From a virus: DNA of 43,263 bases. Where the stretch lies: the IMG/VR virus record IMGVR_UViG_3300009431_000882; one strand, given 5' to 3'. Of this stretch, positions 11,022 through 36,193 are shown in pieces. The first letter of the stretch is position 1. Every line of letters begins with the position of its first letter. The translations under genes and the position numbers were made by a program. The notes under the pieces were generated by a model, which was not told the origin of the DNA, made no database searches, and was given only the letters and a program-made list of their open reading frames with translations.

Positions 11022-11132
11022 GGCTACACCTCACCTCTGGGCGGCTTCTGGGTTGTCTTCTCTATCTATAACTTCGGCAACAGAATCGCTCAATATGAAT
11101 TTTTTGCGGCGCTTGCTAGCATAAATACCCAC

Positions 11133-11357
11133 ATGAAACGGTTTCGCAAATGGCTTGAAAGCAATGCCGACTACGACCAGGCATTGAATCGTCCTCAATT
11201 CATGTCCCCTCGTTTCGACCCTAGGAAACGGGGTTCGCATAGGATTGGGGAAAAGCAAGAAGACCCGATGTACCACACCCTTCACAAGCGGCGCAAATCC
11301 CGTGCTGCCACGAAGAGCCCCGCCGACGAACTTTTCGGTTTTATAAATAAATCCTAA
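11133..11357 (+). CDS. hypothetical small basic protein, 74 aa
   Basis: ORF. The motif TGCTAGCATAAAT lies 12 nt upstream of the ATG, so the mRNA may be leaderless. Confidence 0.4.
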   Translation: MKRFRKWLESNADYDQALNRPQFMSPRFDPRKRGSHRIGEKQEDPMYHTLHKRRKSRAATKSPADELFGFINKS

Positions 11358-11432
11358 AGGCCCTCAAGTGCTAGTACCGATACTGCTAGTACGAGCCCGC
11401 ATCTTGTAATTGACCGATGTTTTTGGATCACT

Positions 11433-12179
11433 ATGCTTATACTAGATTCCCTCGCATACACGGCAAAAGTAGCTCAACGGACACGTGTAACAGCAATGCC
11501 AAAAAAAAAAGCAGTACGAAAAGCCGCATCAATGTCTACACTCAAACTGAGGCTCCAAGACGATCAACTCAAACGGGAACGCCTTGAGCGAAAGAAATGT
11601 TTCCGCATTGAGCCTATGAATGTTTTCAACGACGACGAAGTTATCACGGGCGAGATACGGTTGTTGTCTGAAGATAGTTACTGGGAAGTCCACTACAAAA
11701 CTACTGGAGGAAGTTGGACTTCATGGCAGGGCTTAGATACGTCTTCTTATCAGGATGCTAGGGCATTGGCGACAGATTACATTCTTCGCCAATATCTCTA
11801 TAGGCAGTCACAGCAAATAGATCGGGAGCGAAAAGTAGTTGATGGTATCAACCGGCTATCTCTTCCAATGTTACATCGCATCAGGGACACGGTCGCCCGG
11901 CGATTATCTTATCTCTTTGCTTTCCAGACTCGTGTTCTCTTTTCGGAACACGAACTCAACGAATCGGAACAATCGTACGTCGGCGTAGTCCTAATACAAA
12001 GGCAGTTGAAAGAAGCCCAAACGGCGCTTGCCTCAGCAGAAGAAAAGTACAAGCTCCTCGTGGATAGGACAAAGAACGAGGTTCGAGAAGGTAAATGCGA
12101 AGCCGTAGCCGAACAAATCAAAGAGATTGAGCGTAGTGAAGAAGACGGAGTGAAGAAGAATGTCATTAACACGTGCTGA
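11433..12179 (+). CDS. hypothetical protein, 248 aa (alternative start at 11496)
   Basis: Long ORF. An A10 run at 11501..11510 encodes KKK. The C-terminal region is coiled-coil. Confidence 0.5.
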   Translation: MLILDSLAYTAKVAQRTRVTAMPKKKAVRKAASMSTLKLRLQDDQLKRERLERKKCFRIEPMNVFNDDEVITGEIRLLSEDSYWEVHYKTTGGSWTSWQGLDTSSYQDARALATDYILRQYLYRQSQQIDRERKVVDGINRLSLPMLHRIRDTVARRLSYLFAFQTRVLFSEHELNESEQSYVGVVLIQRQLKEAQTALASAEEKYKLLVDRTKNEVREGKCEAVAEQIKEIERSEEDGVKKNVINTC

Positions 12180-12498
12180 CATCGACTATTTCGCAAAAGC
12201 ACTCGAAAGTTCCTCGACAGCAAAAGTTCGGGAAATGCGGCGTTTGCTGGAAACCGAACTCGCTCTACGCACAAAAAGGGTACTTACCAGCTTTATCGCA
12301 GACTACGATTTAAGACCGGTTGAGATTGCTTATATTCAGCGACTTTTGCTCGACAACCAATTGCGCACAGTCAGCAACGAGCAAGCTAATGTCCGCCGTA
12401 CGTATGACCGGATTCGTAAGAAGGCAATGGTGATGATCCGGGAAGACGTATGCCGCATCGTCGCCGACCGCATGTCACAGGCTTTCGCAAGAGGCTAG
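12160..12498 (+). CDS. hypothetical protein, 112 aa, possibly a helix-turn-helix (sigma region-4-like) protein
   Basis: ORF that overlaps the upstream gene. Weak HTH-like pattern EIAYIQRLL...RRTYDRIRKKA. Confidence 0.4.
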   Translation: MSLTRADIDYFAKALESSSTAKVREMRRLLETELALRTKRVLTSFIADYDLRPVEIAYIQRLLLDNQLRTVSNEQANVRRTYDRIRKKAMVMIREDVCRIVADRMSQAFARG

Positions 12499-12499
12499 A

Positions 12500-13015
12500 A
12501 TGCCCAAACACATAGAAGTAGATCAGGTAGAACTTGAATCCGCCATTGAGCTTGTAGAAGAGAACGGACCTCTTCCAAGTCTTCTTGCTTTGTCCACTCA
12601 AGTTTCAGAAACGATGGGTGGATATCCTCCTCCCTACATCGTCAAGTCACGCATTGAAACTTGGCAAATTGAAGTCAAAACAAAATCTGGGCGCAAAAGG
12701 AATGCTCGGCCGAGCGTAGATAATCCGTCACCATCACCTTCAGTAGGTCGCAACATGACGATTATCTACACACCATCGGGTCCATGCCCGTACAAATTAC
12801 TTGGTACCGACAAGAAAATGGTCGAGGTTTGGGTTGAAAAAATCACAACAGACGGGTACACCAGAAATGTCTGGTACTCAAAGAACGCCCTCGCTTATTA
12901 TGTCCGCCAGTTCTATGATATTTTCTCGCCTGAATATGAAGCTGTGAGGGAAGTTATCAATAGGCTTCCGCTCGATTACCCACCTGAAGAAGAAGAGATT
13001 GACGAAAGTGCATAG
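12500..13015 (+). CDS. hypothetical protein, 171 aa
   Basis: ORF that starts 2 nt after the upstream stop. Confidence 0.5.
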   Translation: MPKHIEVDQVELESAIELVEENGPLPSLLALSTQVSETMGGYPPPYIVKSRIETWQIEVKTKSGRKRNARPSVDNPSPSPSVGRNMTIIYTPSGPCPYKLLGTDKKMVEVWVEKITTDGYTRNVWYSKNALAYYVRQFYDIFSPEYEAVREVINRLPLDYPPEEEEIDESA

Positions 13016-13023
13016 ATACCCAC

Positions 13024-34012: not shown

Positions 34013-34264
34013 TGAGAAATCACCCTGATCGCTGAGGCCGCCATTTGGCTCTCGCACGATCTGCCGCCTATGTGTGGATTTCGGATCGAGCACACGCCTC
34101 GTGCCCCAGCGATCAGGGTTCTTTCATATCCTGATGGATTGCATCCCAATCGTCGGCGCAGGCCCCCCGGCCCACGCACACCTGCTTCGCCATTGGCGAA
34201 GCAGGTGTGCCCATTTGATAACAAGCGACCATCCGTTCCTTTCGCCACGGCCGCTTCGTCCCCT

Positions 34265-34307
34265 GCCCGTTTCCTCGGATTTCCCGAGGAAACGGGCTTT
34301 TCTTTTT
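34265..34307 (+). terminator. strong intrinsic terminator (13-bp perfect stem CCCGTTTCCTCGG/CCGAGGAAACGGG, loop ATTTC, then CTTTTCTTTTTT)
   Basis: Textbook rho-independent terminator on the plus strand. Confidence 0.7.
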
Positions 34308-34556
34308 TCTCTCCTGTCAGGATCAGCCCTTCAGCGGACTATAGGCATGGTAGCCATTCCCGGTGAATCATCCTGCTAGCGTAGAATCGCTAGCGAGCGC
34401 AACTCCAGGAATCGCAAGGCATATCGAAAACGATAGTATTCAAACGCCCACTAGCTAGCATTACGAAACGCCAGTACTGCTAGCTGTGGTATTCCCAGGG
34501 TTCTACGCACATTTGTGTTTCACCGGGAATTGCTGTAGGCATGGGAGGGTGTCTAT

Positions 34557-34763
34557 ATGCATCATCGCTGCTACGCTGGGGCGACGTTTACCATCAGCTT
34601 CCTCGGCCGTATCCTACACGCTGACGGCCCAGCCTACTACGACGAGGAACACAACGAACTTGTGATTCCCCTCGCCAATGCGGCTGTCCACCTGGACCAG
34701 AGCTTTACAGGACGAATCGCAGATGGACGAGAGTACGGCACAGATTACTTGGTGGAATTATGA
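34557..34763 (+). CDS. hypothetical small protein, 68 aa
   Basis: GGGAGGG 8 nt upstream of the ATG. Normal composition. Confidence 0.35.
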   Translation: MHHRCYAGATFTISFLGRILHADGPAYYDEEHNELVIPLANAAVHLDQSFTGRIADGREYGTDYLVEL

Positions 34764-34826
34764 GACTCCTTCTTCAGTTTACCCTCCCTGCATGTCGATA
34801 TCTTCAAAAACAGCGGAGATATCCCC

Positions 34827-35741
34827 ATGCACGTCCTGTCGGTCGACGACCTAACCACCGAGTTCATTGTTAAACTCTTCCATCGAGCGGAGCACCTGGA
34901 AAAGAATAAGAAACATCACCACGACCATCTTGACGGCTACGTGCTGGCTTCGATCTTCCTCGAAGCCAGCACTCGCACCAGGCTTTCCACCGAGACCGCC
35001 ATGTGGCGGCTCGGTGGAAAGGTGGCGACCATTACAGATCAAGAAACCAGTTCGCTCCAAAAAGGAGAGACCTTATCTGATACACTTCACGCCATCTCGC
35101 ATTTCGTTGACCTTATCGCCATACGGCAACGAGGGTCGTTAACGGCGGAACATGTGAACGCTTCAGTAAAACCCCTCATCAACTGTGGTGACGGCGAAGG
35201 GAATCATCCCACCCAGGCGCTGCTCGACGCCTATACGATCTGGAAACATTTCCAGCGACTTGACCACCTCCGTATCTTCTCTTACGGCGATCCCGAGCAC
35301 GCCCGTGCCTGGAAGAGCCTGGCCGGGATCATTCAGAAATTCTCCAATGGCAGCACCAAGGTGATCGAACTCAACCGTTGGTCCCGGCACAATCTGATGG
35401 GAGATAGCATTCTACGTTCCAAACAAGAGAAAATGCAAAAAGCTCTGCCCTGGGCGGATGTCGTCTACGTCACCCGATCTCAACAGGAACGATGGCAACA
35501 AAACTTAGGAATTCAACTGATTCTGGAATGGACGCCAACGGTCTATGCTGGCAACCAAATGAACCTGGATAAATCTGCCTTGAGTGAAATCAAAGAAGAT
35601 GCCATCATATTGCATCCGCTGCCCAGGAGAGATGAACTCTCGGCAGAAATTGACAGCGACCCCAGGGTAAAGATTTGGGAACAAGTGAATAACGGGATGT
35701 TCATCCGCATGGCCCTGATCGAAGCCCTGTTGCTATCATAG
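34827..35741 (+). CDS. pyrB: aspartate carbamoyltransferase catalytic-chain (PyrB)-like protein
   Basis: Carbamoyl-phosphate motif ASTRTRLSTE (STRTR). HPTQAL. HPLP, which is the ATCase form (OTCase has HCLP). YVTRSQQERW resembles E. coli YMTRVQKERL. The conserved R-H pair appears as R-Q (AIRQRG). Confidence 0.7.
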   Translation: MHVLSVDDLTTEFIVKLFHRAEHLEKNKKHHHDHLDGYVLASIFLEASTRTRLSTETAMWRLGGKVATITDQETSSLQKGETLSDTLHAISHFVDLIAIRQRGSLTAEHVNASVKPLINCGDGEGNHPTQALLDAYTIWKHFQRLDHLRIFSYGDPEHARAWKSLAGIIQKFSNGSTKVIELNRWSRHNLMGDSILRSKQEKMQKALPWADVVYVTRSQQERWQQNLGIQLILEWTPTVYAGNQMNLDKSALSEIKEDAIILHPLPRRDELSAEIDSDPRVKIWEQVNNGMFIRMALIEALLLS

Positions 35742-35752
35742 CAGGTGCTAGC

Positions 35753-36193
35753 GTGTCCTCGTCACCATTAGGATTCTCGATCCTCCTCCTAGCCACTATG
35801 GTCTGGGTGTTCTTGATCGGCTACTGGTTGCCCTCCCTCATTCGACCAGGATTTTTCATTCGTAAAAAAAATGAAACGTTGAAAGGCGACACGCTCTGGT
35901 CCCATGAAACTCAAATGGGAGAAGTTCCGGGCGAAGTGGTCTTAACACGAGAATCCCGTCGTCCAGACAGCAGCTACATTCACTATTCATTCCGCTTTCG
36001 ACCATTTCGTTGGTGGCATCGGCTGAAAGAGTCCAAAGGCCGACTGGCAACAATTAGCTACCAACCTGGTTCCCAAAAACCGAGCCTCAGCTACTCATCT
36101 CCTATTTCTTGGTCGAGGAAGCTCAAAAGCATACTAAAATCTGCCGCTGCCGCTGTCGCTCTTGACATCGAGCAGTCCATGAAAGGACGCTGA
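35753..36193 (+). CDS. hypothetical membrane protein, 146 aa (GTG start)
   Basis: Two N-terminal TM helices. TGCTAGCG lies immediately upstream. Confidence 0.45.
   Translation: MSSSPLGFSILLLATMVWVFLIGYWLPSLIRPGFFIRKKNETLKGDTLWSHETQMGEVPGEVVLTRESRRPDSSYIHYSFRFRPFRWWHRLKESKGRLATISYQPGSQKPSLSYSSPISWSRKLKSILKSAAAAVALDIEQSMKGR

Follow-up and report, generated by a model that had tools for sequence, protein, structure and literature searches.

The gaps between the genes of this phage carry a short, near-palindromic word, with consensus 5'-TGCTAG(C/T)(A/G)-3', that is far more frequent there than composition predicts, recurs at a fixed tandem spacing and tends to run with transcription. Most likely it is a phage-specific control signal of a kind already known from other phages. 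Our preferred reading, to which we give a probability of roughly 45%, is that the copies are operator- or stoperator-like sites, forming an array bound by a DNA-binding regulator that the phage itself encodes. The window (the whole stretch of DNA analysed, 43,263 nucleotides) is not bacterial chromosome: it is a complete, metagenome-derived contig of an uncultivated, huge-phage-like element, and a second contig from this phage (L086), which overlaps it, adds 9.5 kb with two more pairs and a triple array of the word, bringing the sample to ca. 54 kb of one clonal phage. The motif is absent from relatives at 48% and 31% protein identity and is therefore lineage-specific. A tRNA with anticodon TTA (an ochre suppressor) lies 1.7 kb past the window end, and the acyl carrier protein (ACP) gene holds an in-frame TAA.

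Enrichment of the word in intergenic DNA

The original prediction placed the perfect palindrome TGCTAGCA at window positions 11114, 14266, 18592 and 20871 and expected less than one copy by chance; all four copies are present, and dinucleotide shuffles of the window contain a mean of 0.48, with four copies reached in 0 of 100. Two of its hexamers are also in excess in the window (TGCTAG, 25 observed against 12.75 expected; GCTAGC, 15 against 6.07). The concentration between genes is equally clear: on an intergenic map built from an ORF and codon-usage gene map together with the JGI gene calls, TGCTAG/CTAGCA tops all hexamers for intergenic enrichment: 18 of its 25 copies fall in gaps that make up 15% of the window (p=3e-10, binomial). 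GCTAGCA has 13 of its 15 copies there (p=2e-9). A count against oligonucleotide composition had been named beforehand as the refuting check. The excess persists: in the intergenic DNA of 52.8 kb of the phage, judged by a first-order model of that intergenic DNA itself, TGCTAG occurs 23 times against 3.45 expected (p=3e-12) and TGCTAGCA has 10 strand-counts (5 sites) against 0.23. The enrichment is stronger than first described. The supporting argument from CTAG avoidance stood only for genes, where the tetramer is depleted (1.36 per kb); its intergenic density of 4.7 per kb is near the random expectation of 3.9. It is not CTAG as such but its TG...C(A) context that is enriched, TG flanking intergenic CTAG in 23 of 92 flanks (p=2e-8). 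The core of the prediction, a non-random functional cis-element in the non-coding DNA of an element with its own regulation, is borne out by these data.

The same counts bear on the suspicion of an artefact, in which the gaps would be coding under read-through of recoded TAG or TAA, or the word would reflect composition or chance. A TAG-containing word is excluded from one coding frame, and the tRNA and the in-frame TAA in the ACP gene would suit recoding. Taking TGA as sole stop, however, does not raise the coding potential of any gap ORF: per-codon scores lie between about -0.17 and +0.03, where the gene median is 0.11; in-frame TAA, TAG and TGA with coding signal on both sides number 4, 5 and 4 cases, and genes end in TAA, TAG and TGA 21, 19 and 24 times. 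Coding scores and stop usage, together with an excess that survives within intergenic DNA against its own composition and a spacing peak that cannot come from composition, largely refute this explanation, which we regard as very improbable.

Architecture and placement of the sites

Start-to-start spacing on the + strand peaks sharply at 14 bp (3 pairs) and 15 bp (5 pairs), and these 8 direct pairs compare with 0.06 expected in 100 Markov simulations. There is one triple array, TGCTAC-N8-TGCTAG-N9-TGCTAG (L086 11161-11195), and five units are packed within 112 bp at 34374-34485. Non-palindromic units run with the direction of transcription by 12 to 2; perfect TGCTAGCA accounts for 5 of 19 intergenic sites where ca. 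1.2 would be expected given TGCTAG, and beyond the 7-9 bp core the sites share no conserved sequence. Three pairs hold the Shine-Dalgarno sequence of a gene that starts 1-3 nt past the second unit (starts 35753, L086 11197 and, on the minus strand, 14249), so that at least the second unit is transcribed, and two pairs include the stop codon of the upstream gene. Only 3 of ca. 13 elements abut a start codon, the others being located at stop codons or 13-226 nt upstream. In four gaps TTGACC -35-like boxes (11410, 18638, 20963, 26708) follow the units at a distance of 26-92 bp downstream. The pairing as a general rule, the orientation bias, the fact that units overlap ribosome-binding sites and stop codons, and the huge-phage-like nature of the contig come in addition to what had been predicted. 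The variants listed at 11369/11384, 26642/26656, 34374, 34478 and 35746 were recovered (Table 1), as were the split inverted repeats, while three further units exist with other starts: 33787 for 33786, 34388 for 34387, and 34453, as listed here, for 34452.

Table 1. Units, pairs and inverted repeats of the motif in the window
Feature	Position	Strand	Context
Single perfect unit TGCTAGCA	11114..11121	.	Inside 13-mer TGCTAGCATAAAT, recurring at 20871; 12 nt upstream of ATG of small basic ORF 11133-11357
Pair TGCTAGTA-N7-TGCTAGTA	11369..11391	+	15 bp start to start; TGCTAGTAC at both 11369 and 11384; 12 nt past stop of ORF 11133-11357; 19 nt upstream of promoter-like TTGACC-16-TATGCT (11410-11437)
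Pair TGATAGCG-N7-TGCTAGCA	14251..14273	.	Fills much of 43-bp gap between divergent genes; minus strand TGCTAG-cacAGGGGA-CGCTAT-cac-ATG, start of gene 13875-14249
Single perfect unit TGCTAGCA	18592..18599	.	14 nt past intrinsic terminator 18545-18578; 39 nt upstream of TTGACC -35-like box (18638), before ACP gene
Pair AACTAGCA-N7-TGCTAGCA	20856..20878	-	Both hexamers exact TGCTAG on minus strand; 44 nt past stop of gene 20339-20812; then G+C-rich hairpin and TTGACC-17-TAGAAC site (20963-20991)
Split inverted repeat CTAGCA-N7-TGCTAG	20858-20876		Within pair 20856..20878
Pair TGCTAGCG-N6-TGCTAGCT	26642..26663	+	14 bp start to start; TAG of first unit is stop codon of SpoU-methylase gene (26000-26647); ends at TTGCCA-18-GAAAAT site
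CTAG-N4-TGCTAG	26717-26728	+	Gap of 26642 pair; upstream of gene 26783/26855-27781
Inverted repeat GTGCTA-tact-TAGCAC	26749-26764	+	Same gap, upstream of same gene
Single unit TGCTAGTC	33787..33794	+	Partnerless, in 918-bp region without ORFs
Pair TGCTAGCG-N6-CGCTAGCG	34374..34395	+	14 bp start to start; 8-bp stem, -12.8 kcal/mol; opens five-unit cluster upstream of ORF 34557-34763 and aspartate carbamoyltransferase gene
Long inverted repeat CCACTAGCTAGCA-N17-TGCTAGCTGTGG	34448..34489	+	Units AGCTAGCA (34453) and 34478
Pair TGCTATCA-N7-TGCTAGCG	35731..35753	+	Second unit at 35746, directly before GTG at 35753 (JGI gene call: start at 35798); spans carbamoyltransferase TAG stop (35739-35741) and AGCAGG Shine-Dalgarno-like run
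Split inverted repeat TGCTA-tca-TAGCA	35731-35743		Start of pair 35731..35753

Proposed regulator sites and alternative explanations

Three mechanisms had been offered, a dimeric-regulator operator, a promoter element and a methylation or restriction site, and the operator is the best single one, given the 8-bp perfect palindromes, the fixed tandem spacing, the triple array and the five-site cluster. The sequence itself shows that the word is non-random, intergenic, palindromic, regularly spaced, biased in strand and specific to this lineage, and where it stands with respect to genes, promoters and terminators; from this we infer a protein that binds the units, on DNA rather than RNA, with an effect on transcription. 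Each unit would be a phage-specific cis-regulatory site in duplex DNA, mostly as two units and once as three; a phage-encoded sequence-specific protein would bind each near-palindromic unit, probably as one dimer per unit and cooperatively between neighbours, as at operator pairs. From gene boundaries and positions just upstream of host-type TTGAC promoters, the bound protein would repress initiation or block the elongating RNA polymerase (a roadblock, or 'stoperator'). Arrays of at least three units suit cooperative protein binding; the three units of the triple cannot all pair as one hairpin. No DNA-binding protein was identified, and Pfam and PHROGs are blank for the neighbouring ORFs; the C-terminus of ORF 18967-19386 looks ribbon-helix-helix-like by eye, which neither Pfam (no match) nor AlphaFold (pLDDT <50 there) confirmed.

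The main rival is a stem-loop in the sense RNA at gene boundaries, in which units would pair as UGCUAGYR-loop-UGCUAGYR with a stem of 6-9 bp and serve, alone or as target of a phage RNA-binding protein or endoribonuclease, in fixing the 3' ends or the stability of mRNA and as translational operator at the start of the next gene. We consider it possible but rather unlikely. A symmetric dimer does not predict the strand bias, nor the kind of mismatch seen between paired units: where these depart from Watson-Crick pairing, G.U results seven times on the sense strand and once on the antisense. This count is low and partly biased, the pairs having come from a search for TGCTAG on one strand. Wobble pairing would permit just such a consensus, in which TG is invariant and Y and R follow, and in 6 of 9 pairs folding favours the sense strand (at 11369..11391 the sense stem of 9 bp includes two G.U pairs and reaches -10.3 kcal/mol, the antisense -3.3). 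Pairs lying over ribosome-binding sites and stop codons would fit more naturally with a signal in mRNA: in the three start-abutting pairs the Shine-Dalgarno-like run would sit in the loop with the start just past the stem, and in two pairs the upstream stop codon lies inside. The hairpin at 34448-34489, with 12 pairs (-20.9 kcal/mol, z=-3.2, equal stability in 0 of 200 shuffles), carries complementarity 4 bp past the motif, and the translation-linked SAS and extended SAS repeats of Cluster K offer a precedent (PMC3203893). Yet there is no compensatory double substitution, and stems conserved as sequence give no independent sign of structure. Units 11114 and 33787 are partnerless and that at 18592 has a weak partner; the CA of the perfect palindromes 11114, 18592 and 20871 has no partner TG to pair with; several pairs fold weakly (-2.6 to -5.5 kcal/mol), and the tight 14/15 spacing resembles protein-DNA geometry.

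A promoter element for phage-specific transcription, whether an extended -10 (TGnTAGnnT) or the target of a sigma factor or RNA polymerase of the phage's own, would also be directional, intergenic and upstream of genes. The ninth position, sixth of a TAGNNT hexamer, is T in 9 of 18 sites; GCTAG is shared with the -10 sequence cgCTAGAAT of strong host-type promoters (16998-17025, 17290-17318), and some motif-preceded genes, such as that for ADP-ribosylglycohydrolase, lack a detectable sigma-70 promoter. But among the TGCTAG sites a sigma-70 scan picks out none in the sense direction (its sole match is antisense, 26669-26641), nothing is conserved at -35 or elsewhere beyond the core, and sequences like TAGCGT or TAGCAG would melt poorly. 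With 8-9 bp separating them, the hexamers do not match the -35/-10 geometry of the sigma-70 family, and the three pairs that enclose a Shine-Dalgarno sequence next to the start codon lie inside the mRNA of that gene. The promoter reading is improbable, and a terminator is likewise disfavoured. Little credit goes, too, to GCTAGC or CTAG as a phage or host methyltransferase or restriction target in epigenetic control, or to REP-like hairpins that a transposase would have spread as selfish elements. Type II enzymes recognise 6-bp palindromes of the kind of GCTAGC, which is in excess, and like REP/BIME elements the units cluster between genes and can form hairpins; against this, neither a DNA methyltransferase nor a restriction enzyme or HUH/tyrosine transposase was found in the 54 kb (the only methylase is the SpoU RNA methylase), and the spacing, the strand bias and the TG/YR flanks are predicted by neither idea.

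Comparison with known repeats

Cluster O mycobacteriophages carry 17-bp palindromic repeats, 5'-TGTTCGGNNNCCGAACA, in tens of copies in one lineage; their function is unproven, and the authors favour sites for a dimeric regulator (PMC4351075). As here, a short palindrome occurs in many copies in short gene gaps, clustered in one part of the genome. The present unit differs in its 8 bp without central spacer, its tandem pairs and strand bias, and its rarity in coding DNA, whereas ca. one third of the Corndog copies lie inside genes; the sequences show no similarity. Stoperators of Cluster A mycobacteriophages (L5, Bxb1, TipsytheTRex) are asymmetric 13-mers bound by a two-domain monomer, a repressor that stops initiation and elongation, and they too are reported to follow the direction of transcription (PMC9283540). 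Both systems comprise many short sites genome-wide, in short intergenic spaces and at promoters; units here are near-palindromic and paired, no repressor gene was identified in this phage, and the huge-phage-like element shows no sign of lysogeny. For the SAS and extended SAS, the latter an imperfect inverted repeat with variable spacer, a role in translation was proposed, the function being unknown (PMC3203893). They share phage specificity, a single orientation and a place just before start codons over the ribosome-binding site, but few of the present elements adjoin a start codon and the motif is not complementary to 16S rRNA.

C-boxes, where the controller (C) proteins of restriction-modification systems bind, consist of two short palindromes whose centres lie ca. 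15 bp apart and on which two helix-turn-helix dimers assemble cooperatively, so that such a spacing is workable for protein binding. They occur once per system, whereas this is a genome-wide family; their sequence GACT...AGTC is absent here, and the 54 kb yielded neither a C protein nor restriction-modification genes. Bacterial REP/BIME elements and the PeSL cassettes of T4-type phages are intergenic, hairpin-capable repeats at gene boundaries, often beside promoters or terminators, and at 20-40 nt or more are much longer than the 8-bp units, for which no associated transposase was found and which show no similarity past the 8-9 bp core. If the units are indeed sites for a phage DNA-binding regulator, one such protein would act over at least nine transcription units, spread over 11-45 kb of the phage.

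Abundance and Intergenic Concentration of the TGCTAG Unit

The original prediction placed four exact copies of TGCTAGCA in the window, the perfect 8-bp palindrome of a unit that reads TGCTAG followed by Y and R. All four are present; 100 dinucleotide-preserving shuffles gave a mean of 0.48 copies, and none of the 100 reached four. Every variant it listed was likewise found, within one base of the position given. The shorter words are also over-represented, with TGCTAG at 25 copies in the window against 12.75 expected and GCTAGC at 15 against 6.07. The claimed concentration between genes is borne out on a partly heuristic gene map (long ORFs scored by codon usage, plus JGI gene calls from overlapping contigs), on which 15% of the window is intergenic. 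CTAGCA/TGCTAG tops all hexamers in intergenic enrichment, 18 of its 25 copies lying between genes (binomial p=3e-10), and GCTAGCA has 13 of its 15 window copies there (p=2e-9). Relative to the first-order composition of the intergenic DNA itself, 23 intergenic TGCTAG are seen and 3.45 expected. Across 54 kb of phage we count 19 intergenic TGCTAG sites, and the six or seven copies in coding DNA do not exceed background. Perfect TGCTAGCA occupies five intergenic sites (0.23 strand-counts expected), with the two-fold symmetry of a dimeric-regulator operator.

CTAG as such had also been said to cluster in non-coding DNA. The tetranucleotide is indeed scarce in coding DNA (1.36 per kb), whereas its intergenic density is close to random (4.7 per kb vs about 3.9). 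What is enriched is its context: TG is found in 23 of 92 flanks of intergenic CTAG (p=2e-8). Further words in excess, TCTTAAC and its relatives, fall within coding DNA, where they mirror codon usage. The recurrence of further hexamers at 15-bp spacing is due to two coding tandem repeats, one of nine copies with a 15-nt period (ACGCCAGC...) inside gene 26783/26855-27781 and one of five copies with a 9-nt period (GTCTTCCTG).

Anatomy and Placement of the Pairs

The core of the unit spans about nine bases, with no conservation beyond it: TGCTAG, C or T at position 7 (15/18), A or G at position 8 (13/18), and then often T (9/18). The spacing from an exact TGCTAG to a copy with at most one mismatch peaks sharply at 14 bp (three pairs) and 15 bp (five pairs), with almost no other spacings within 6-40 bp. 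Simulations gave 0.06 such pairs where eight are seen, and that the motif is an artefact or a product of chance is very improbable indeed. An example on the sense strand reads TGCTAGCG-aacctt-TGCTAGCT. The non-palindromic intergenic units have a strand bias, 12 on the plus and 2 on the minus strand (binomial p about 0.013), nearly all genes there being on the plus strand; the element at the start of the minus-strand gene 13875-14249 (pair ending 14273) has its exact TGCTAG on the minus strand. No larger repeat families or mobile cassettes were found around the motif.

Pairs and neighbouring features are listed in the table. The stop codon of the preceding gene falls within the pair in two cases. 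Three pairs enclose a Shine-Dalgarno-like run and are followed by a start codon 1-3 nt past the second unit (the start of gene 35753/35798 is uncertain); for the remaining units the next gene begins 13-226 nt downstream. Units are found 7-92 bp upstream of -35-like boxes, at no fixed distance, and some sit on ribosome-binding sites. In four gaps they precede a TTGACC box by 26-92 bp, with a -10-like hexamer 16-17 bp further on, and the 18592 unit sits between a clear intrinsic terminator and a TTGACC-type promoter-like site.

Coordinates of TGCTAG pairs and arrays and of other features in the window and in L086, a contig of the same phage that overlaps the right end of the window
Feature	Sequence	Coordinates	Remarks
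Pair	Window	11369/11384	
Pair	Window	14251/14266	Abutting start: ATG 14249, minus strand
Pair	Window	20856/20871	
Pair	Window	26642/26656	Upstream stop codon at 26645-26647
Pair	Window	34374/34388	
Pair	Window	35731/35746	Upstream stop codon at 35739-35741; abutting start: GTG 35753
Five-unit cluster	Window	34374-34485	Units within 112 bp
Triple array	L086	11161/11175/11190	Abutting start: ADP-ribosylglycohydrolase ATG 11197
Pair	L086	12527/12542	
Clear intrinsic terminator	Window	18545-18578	Separate from pairs
Clear intrinsic terminator	Window	27820-27853	Separate from pairs
Clear intrinsic terminator	Window	34265-34297	Separate from pairs; 14-bp stem and T run
Four tandem sigma-70-type promoters	Window	16998-17434	TTGACA-16-TAGAAT, TTGACA-16-TAAAAT, TTGACT-17-TAGAAT, TTGACA-17-TAAGAT
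Stretch of 1.6 kb lacking a credible ORF	Window	16972-18580	
Second ORF-poor stretch	Window	33639-34300	
Inverted repeat, 23 nt	Window	34016-34038, 34103-34125	Arms 64 nt apart
ACP gene	Window	18710-18952	In-frame TAA at 18779-18781
Coding tandem repeat	Window	27483-27650	15-nt period
Coding tandem repeat	Window	43113-43157	9-nt period
Possible small RNA	L086	12050-12410	About 1.0-1.4 kb past the window
tRNA, anticodon TTA	L086	12679-12753 (+)	About 1.7 kb past the right end of the window

Sites in DNA or Stem-Loops in RNA

Two readings remain, in which the units act as regulator sites in duplex DNA or as stem-loops in the sense RNA, and neither accounts for everything. We tentatively prefer the former, with a probability of about 0.45: the units are putative DNA-level binding-site arrays, operator- or stoperator-like, and a regulator would bind the paired or arrayed units in duplex DNA. 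Arguing for this are the five perfect 8-bp palindromes, three of them with a CA that is unpairable with any partner unit, the rigid 14/15-bp spacing, the triple array and the five-site cluster, the location of units near promoters, and the phage precedents of the Cluster O palindromes (PMC4351075) and Cluster A stoperators (PMC9283540). That the paired units instead form a stem-loop on the sense RNA seems to us somewhat unlikely, albeit with several points in its favour. The strand bias is one; another is that mismatches between paired units are G.U seven times on the sense and once on the antisense strand, a statistic of few positions and partly biased by how the pairs were found. The sense fold is the more stable in 6 of 9 pairs, the complementarity of the 34448-34489 hairpin extends past the motif (z=-3.2), units lie on stop codons and ribosome-binding sites, and the Cluster K start-associated sequences (SAS) offer a precedent (PMC3203893). 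The changes between paired units are all one-sided and G.U-compatible, with no double substitutions, and none of the relatives reached carries the motif. More doubtful still is a phage-wide post-transcriptional punctuation of gene boundaries by a sequence-defined stem-loop, which an RNA-binding factor or nuclease of the phage would be dedicated to recognising. Here the stop codon within the stem, the Shine-Dalgarno sequence in the loop and the start codon directly after the stem would tie the end of each cistron to the beginning of its successor.

A phage-specific promoter element, which the original prediction also had in mind, is improbable. Its sigma-70 form is disfavoured by a consensus scan that flags no sense-strand TGCTAG site, although the same scan does find strong host-type promoters elsewhere in the window, including the tandem group at 16998-17434. 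The units have no -35 partner or consensus, and an extended -10 element (TAnnnT) fits poorly with a T at hexamer position 6 in just 9 of 18 sites. In addition, the ribosome-binding site of the following gene lies within three of the pairs, which therefore fall inside its mRNA. A MotA-box-like or sigma-54-like geometry, judged by eye, did not fit. Intrinsic termination was rejected, as no T run follows any pair on the sense (+) strand; the sole terminator-scan match on a pair is on the minus strand of the 26642 pair (GCTAGC stem 26662-26643, tail ATCTGGTTTC). A methylation target or a REP-like repeat is as improbable as the promoter element, and no methyltransferase or endonuclease for NheI-type GCTAGC was found in the 54 kb. 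Stop-codon recoding was rejected as the origin of the apparent gaps, since taking TGA as the only stop gained no coding potential. Rfam returned no match at gathering score in the window and chance-level matches in the large gaps.

No repressor-like or cognate DNA-binding gene was detected in the 54 kb, the neighbouring ORFs having no Pfam or PHROGs match, and a PDB sequence search with candidate regulators gave spurious repeat matches only. The ORF at 18967-19386, 370 bp downstream of the 18592 unit, has a C-terminus (ITPRVPVSLHVALKAEVKQLKDNGRPGMSLNRLVITKCL) that by eye resembles a ribbon-helix-helix. It has no Pfam match, and its single-sequence AlphaFold pLDDT is below 50 at the C-terminus, so that we treat it as no more than a lead for a candidate regulator.

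Comparison with Known Phage Repeats

Cluster A stoperators of mycobacteriophages are intergenic and oriented with transcription (PMC9283540). The present units resemble them in being many across the phage genome, preferentially intergenic and correlated in orientation with transcription. They differ in form: a stoperator is an asymmetric 13-bp site for a monomeric phage immunity repressor, whereas here an 8-bp near-palindrome occurs in tandem pairs. The Cluster O palindromes have been read as dimeric-regulator sites (PMC4351075). Cluster K SAS are always at start codons, whereas here a start-codon or Shine-Dalgarno overlap is seen in 3 elements and not in the other 10 or so. The motif does not show the defining features of stoperators, SAS or sigma-70 promoters, and belongs to no named family. 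Short repeats that are specific to one lineage, sit in phage gene gaps and have been proposed to act in regulation form a well-known class; particular to this phage are the sequence of the unit, the 14-15 bp pairing, and the combination of palindromy with strand bias. A literature search for TGCTAGCA gave cloning primers only.

The Host Element and Its Relatives

The window is probably a fragment of a huge-phage-like element. Its 953-aa protein, which has a major-vault-protein shoulder domain, finds its only matches in the uncultured huge phages LR756500-LR756503 (462-735 kb; 31% identity, E=2e-107), and the family of the protein at 29092-30282 is present on contigs of up to 340 kb. The latter protein is recorded in identical form on a contig of 43,263 bp, which shows the window to be an entire JGI metagenome contig. 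Weak Planctomycete-type matches had suggested a bacterial chromosome, which was rejected on the huge-phage protein match and the contig context. The contigs of relatives measure 80-340 kb and are dense in genes that lack family matches; the two examined (136 kb and 83 kb) have tightly packed, one-directional genes of this kind. Most ORFs of the window are without a Pfam or PHROG match; those matched are a CCA-adding enzyme, a HAD domain of RNA-repair proteins, a sugar epimerase, an M16 peptidase, a SpoU methylase, aspartate carbamoyltransferase, a cpYpsA protein and a TrkA-C protein. None of the genes could be identified as a virion gene, and the window holds no tRNA gene or Rfam family.

The phage sequence examined comprises 54 kb of one clonal population, probably from a much larger genome; the right side was extended by 9.5 kb from L086 and then 1.6 kb from an ENA contig, and no sequence was gained on the left. 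Contigs of the phage from other samples, in total five JGI metagenomes plus one ENA assembly, show 99.9-100% identity and are therefore uninformative on conservation. In a search for close relatives, genome contigs gave matches at or below 33% identity only, viral and metagenome contigs gave none, and the phage collection gave no DNA match. The nearest relatives reached (contigs L083 and L085 at 48% protein identity; LR756500/1 at 31%) have neither a TGCTAG excess nor an analogous paired hexamer, which makes the motif specific to this lineage. In both L083 (19600-20143) and L085 (5413-5778) a radical-SAM gene is followed by a long stretch of retained non-coding DNA, in which the blocks GCAAATT(C/T)GGGGG... 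and CTTGACCCA(A/G)ATCGG(T/C)GAAA are shared. The region resembles a promoter or leader conserved in the phage group, with the same TTGACC box as the window.

Suppressor tRNA, ACP Gene and Non-Coding Stretches

L086 carries a tRNA with anticodon TTA (ochre suppressor), called by ARAGORN and scoring 57 bits with Rfam tRNA. The ACP gene of the window, recognised only from its translated sequence, has an in-frame TAA. Both halves are strong in coding signal (0.115 and 0.26 per codon) and the DSLD motif lies past the TAA, so that a functional ACP needs TAA read-through. There is no global reassignment of TAA, which ends 21 genes and shows no in-frame excess, and a survey of recoded phages names clades recoded for TAG and TGA only (10.1101/2021.08.26.457843).

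No credible ORF emerged in the 1.6-kb stretch under any of the codes tested, nor did an Rfam match; with tandem promoters at its start and a terminator at 18545-18578, it may encode a highly expressed non-coding RNA. The second ORF-poor stretch, also without an Rfam match, contains the 23-nt inverted repeat and ends at the strong terminator at 34265-34297. In L086, the ADP-ribosylglycohydrolase gene is immediately followed by a TTGACA-16-TATATT promoter-like site and then by some 350 nt devoid of ORFs, with G+C-rich hairpins and a terminator-like hairpin plus T run; this region lies upstream of the L086 TGCTAG pair and the suppressor tRNA and could be a further small RNA. In L086 18400-20510 and L096 1-1570, every member of a run of small minus-strand genes is preceded by a repeat GACGGCACGT(C/T)TTAACA and then a GGGAG-type Shine-Dalgarno sequence, and two of the upstream regions are identical over 30 nt. 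These stretches hold no TGCTAG units, and the repeat may be a second regulatory motif or reflect a duplicated small-gene family.

Implications for Huge-Phage Regulation

Nearly all knowledge of huge phages comes from metagenomes, and their gene regulation is essentially uncharted. An 8-bp unit with a fixed pair geometry marks out a putative regulon of nine or more transcription units, including the ACP, aspartate carbamoyltransferase and ADP-ribosylglycohydrolase genes and the suppressor-tRNA region. The motif could serve as bait for its regulator and as a marker to bin more contigs of this phage, and it is a test case for phage repeats acting on DNA versus RNA. If it proves to be ordinary operator binding, it would add one further example to a known class. 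If the gene-boundary reading is true, the phage would combine such a punctuation system with an ochre-suppressor tRNA and an ACP gene dependent on TAA read-through.
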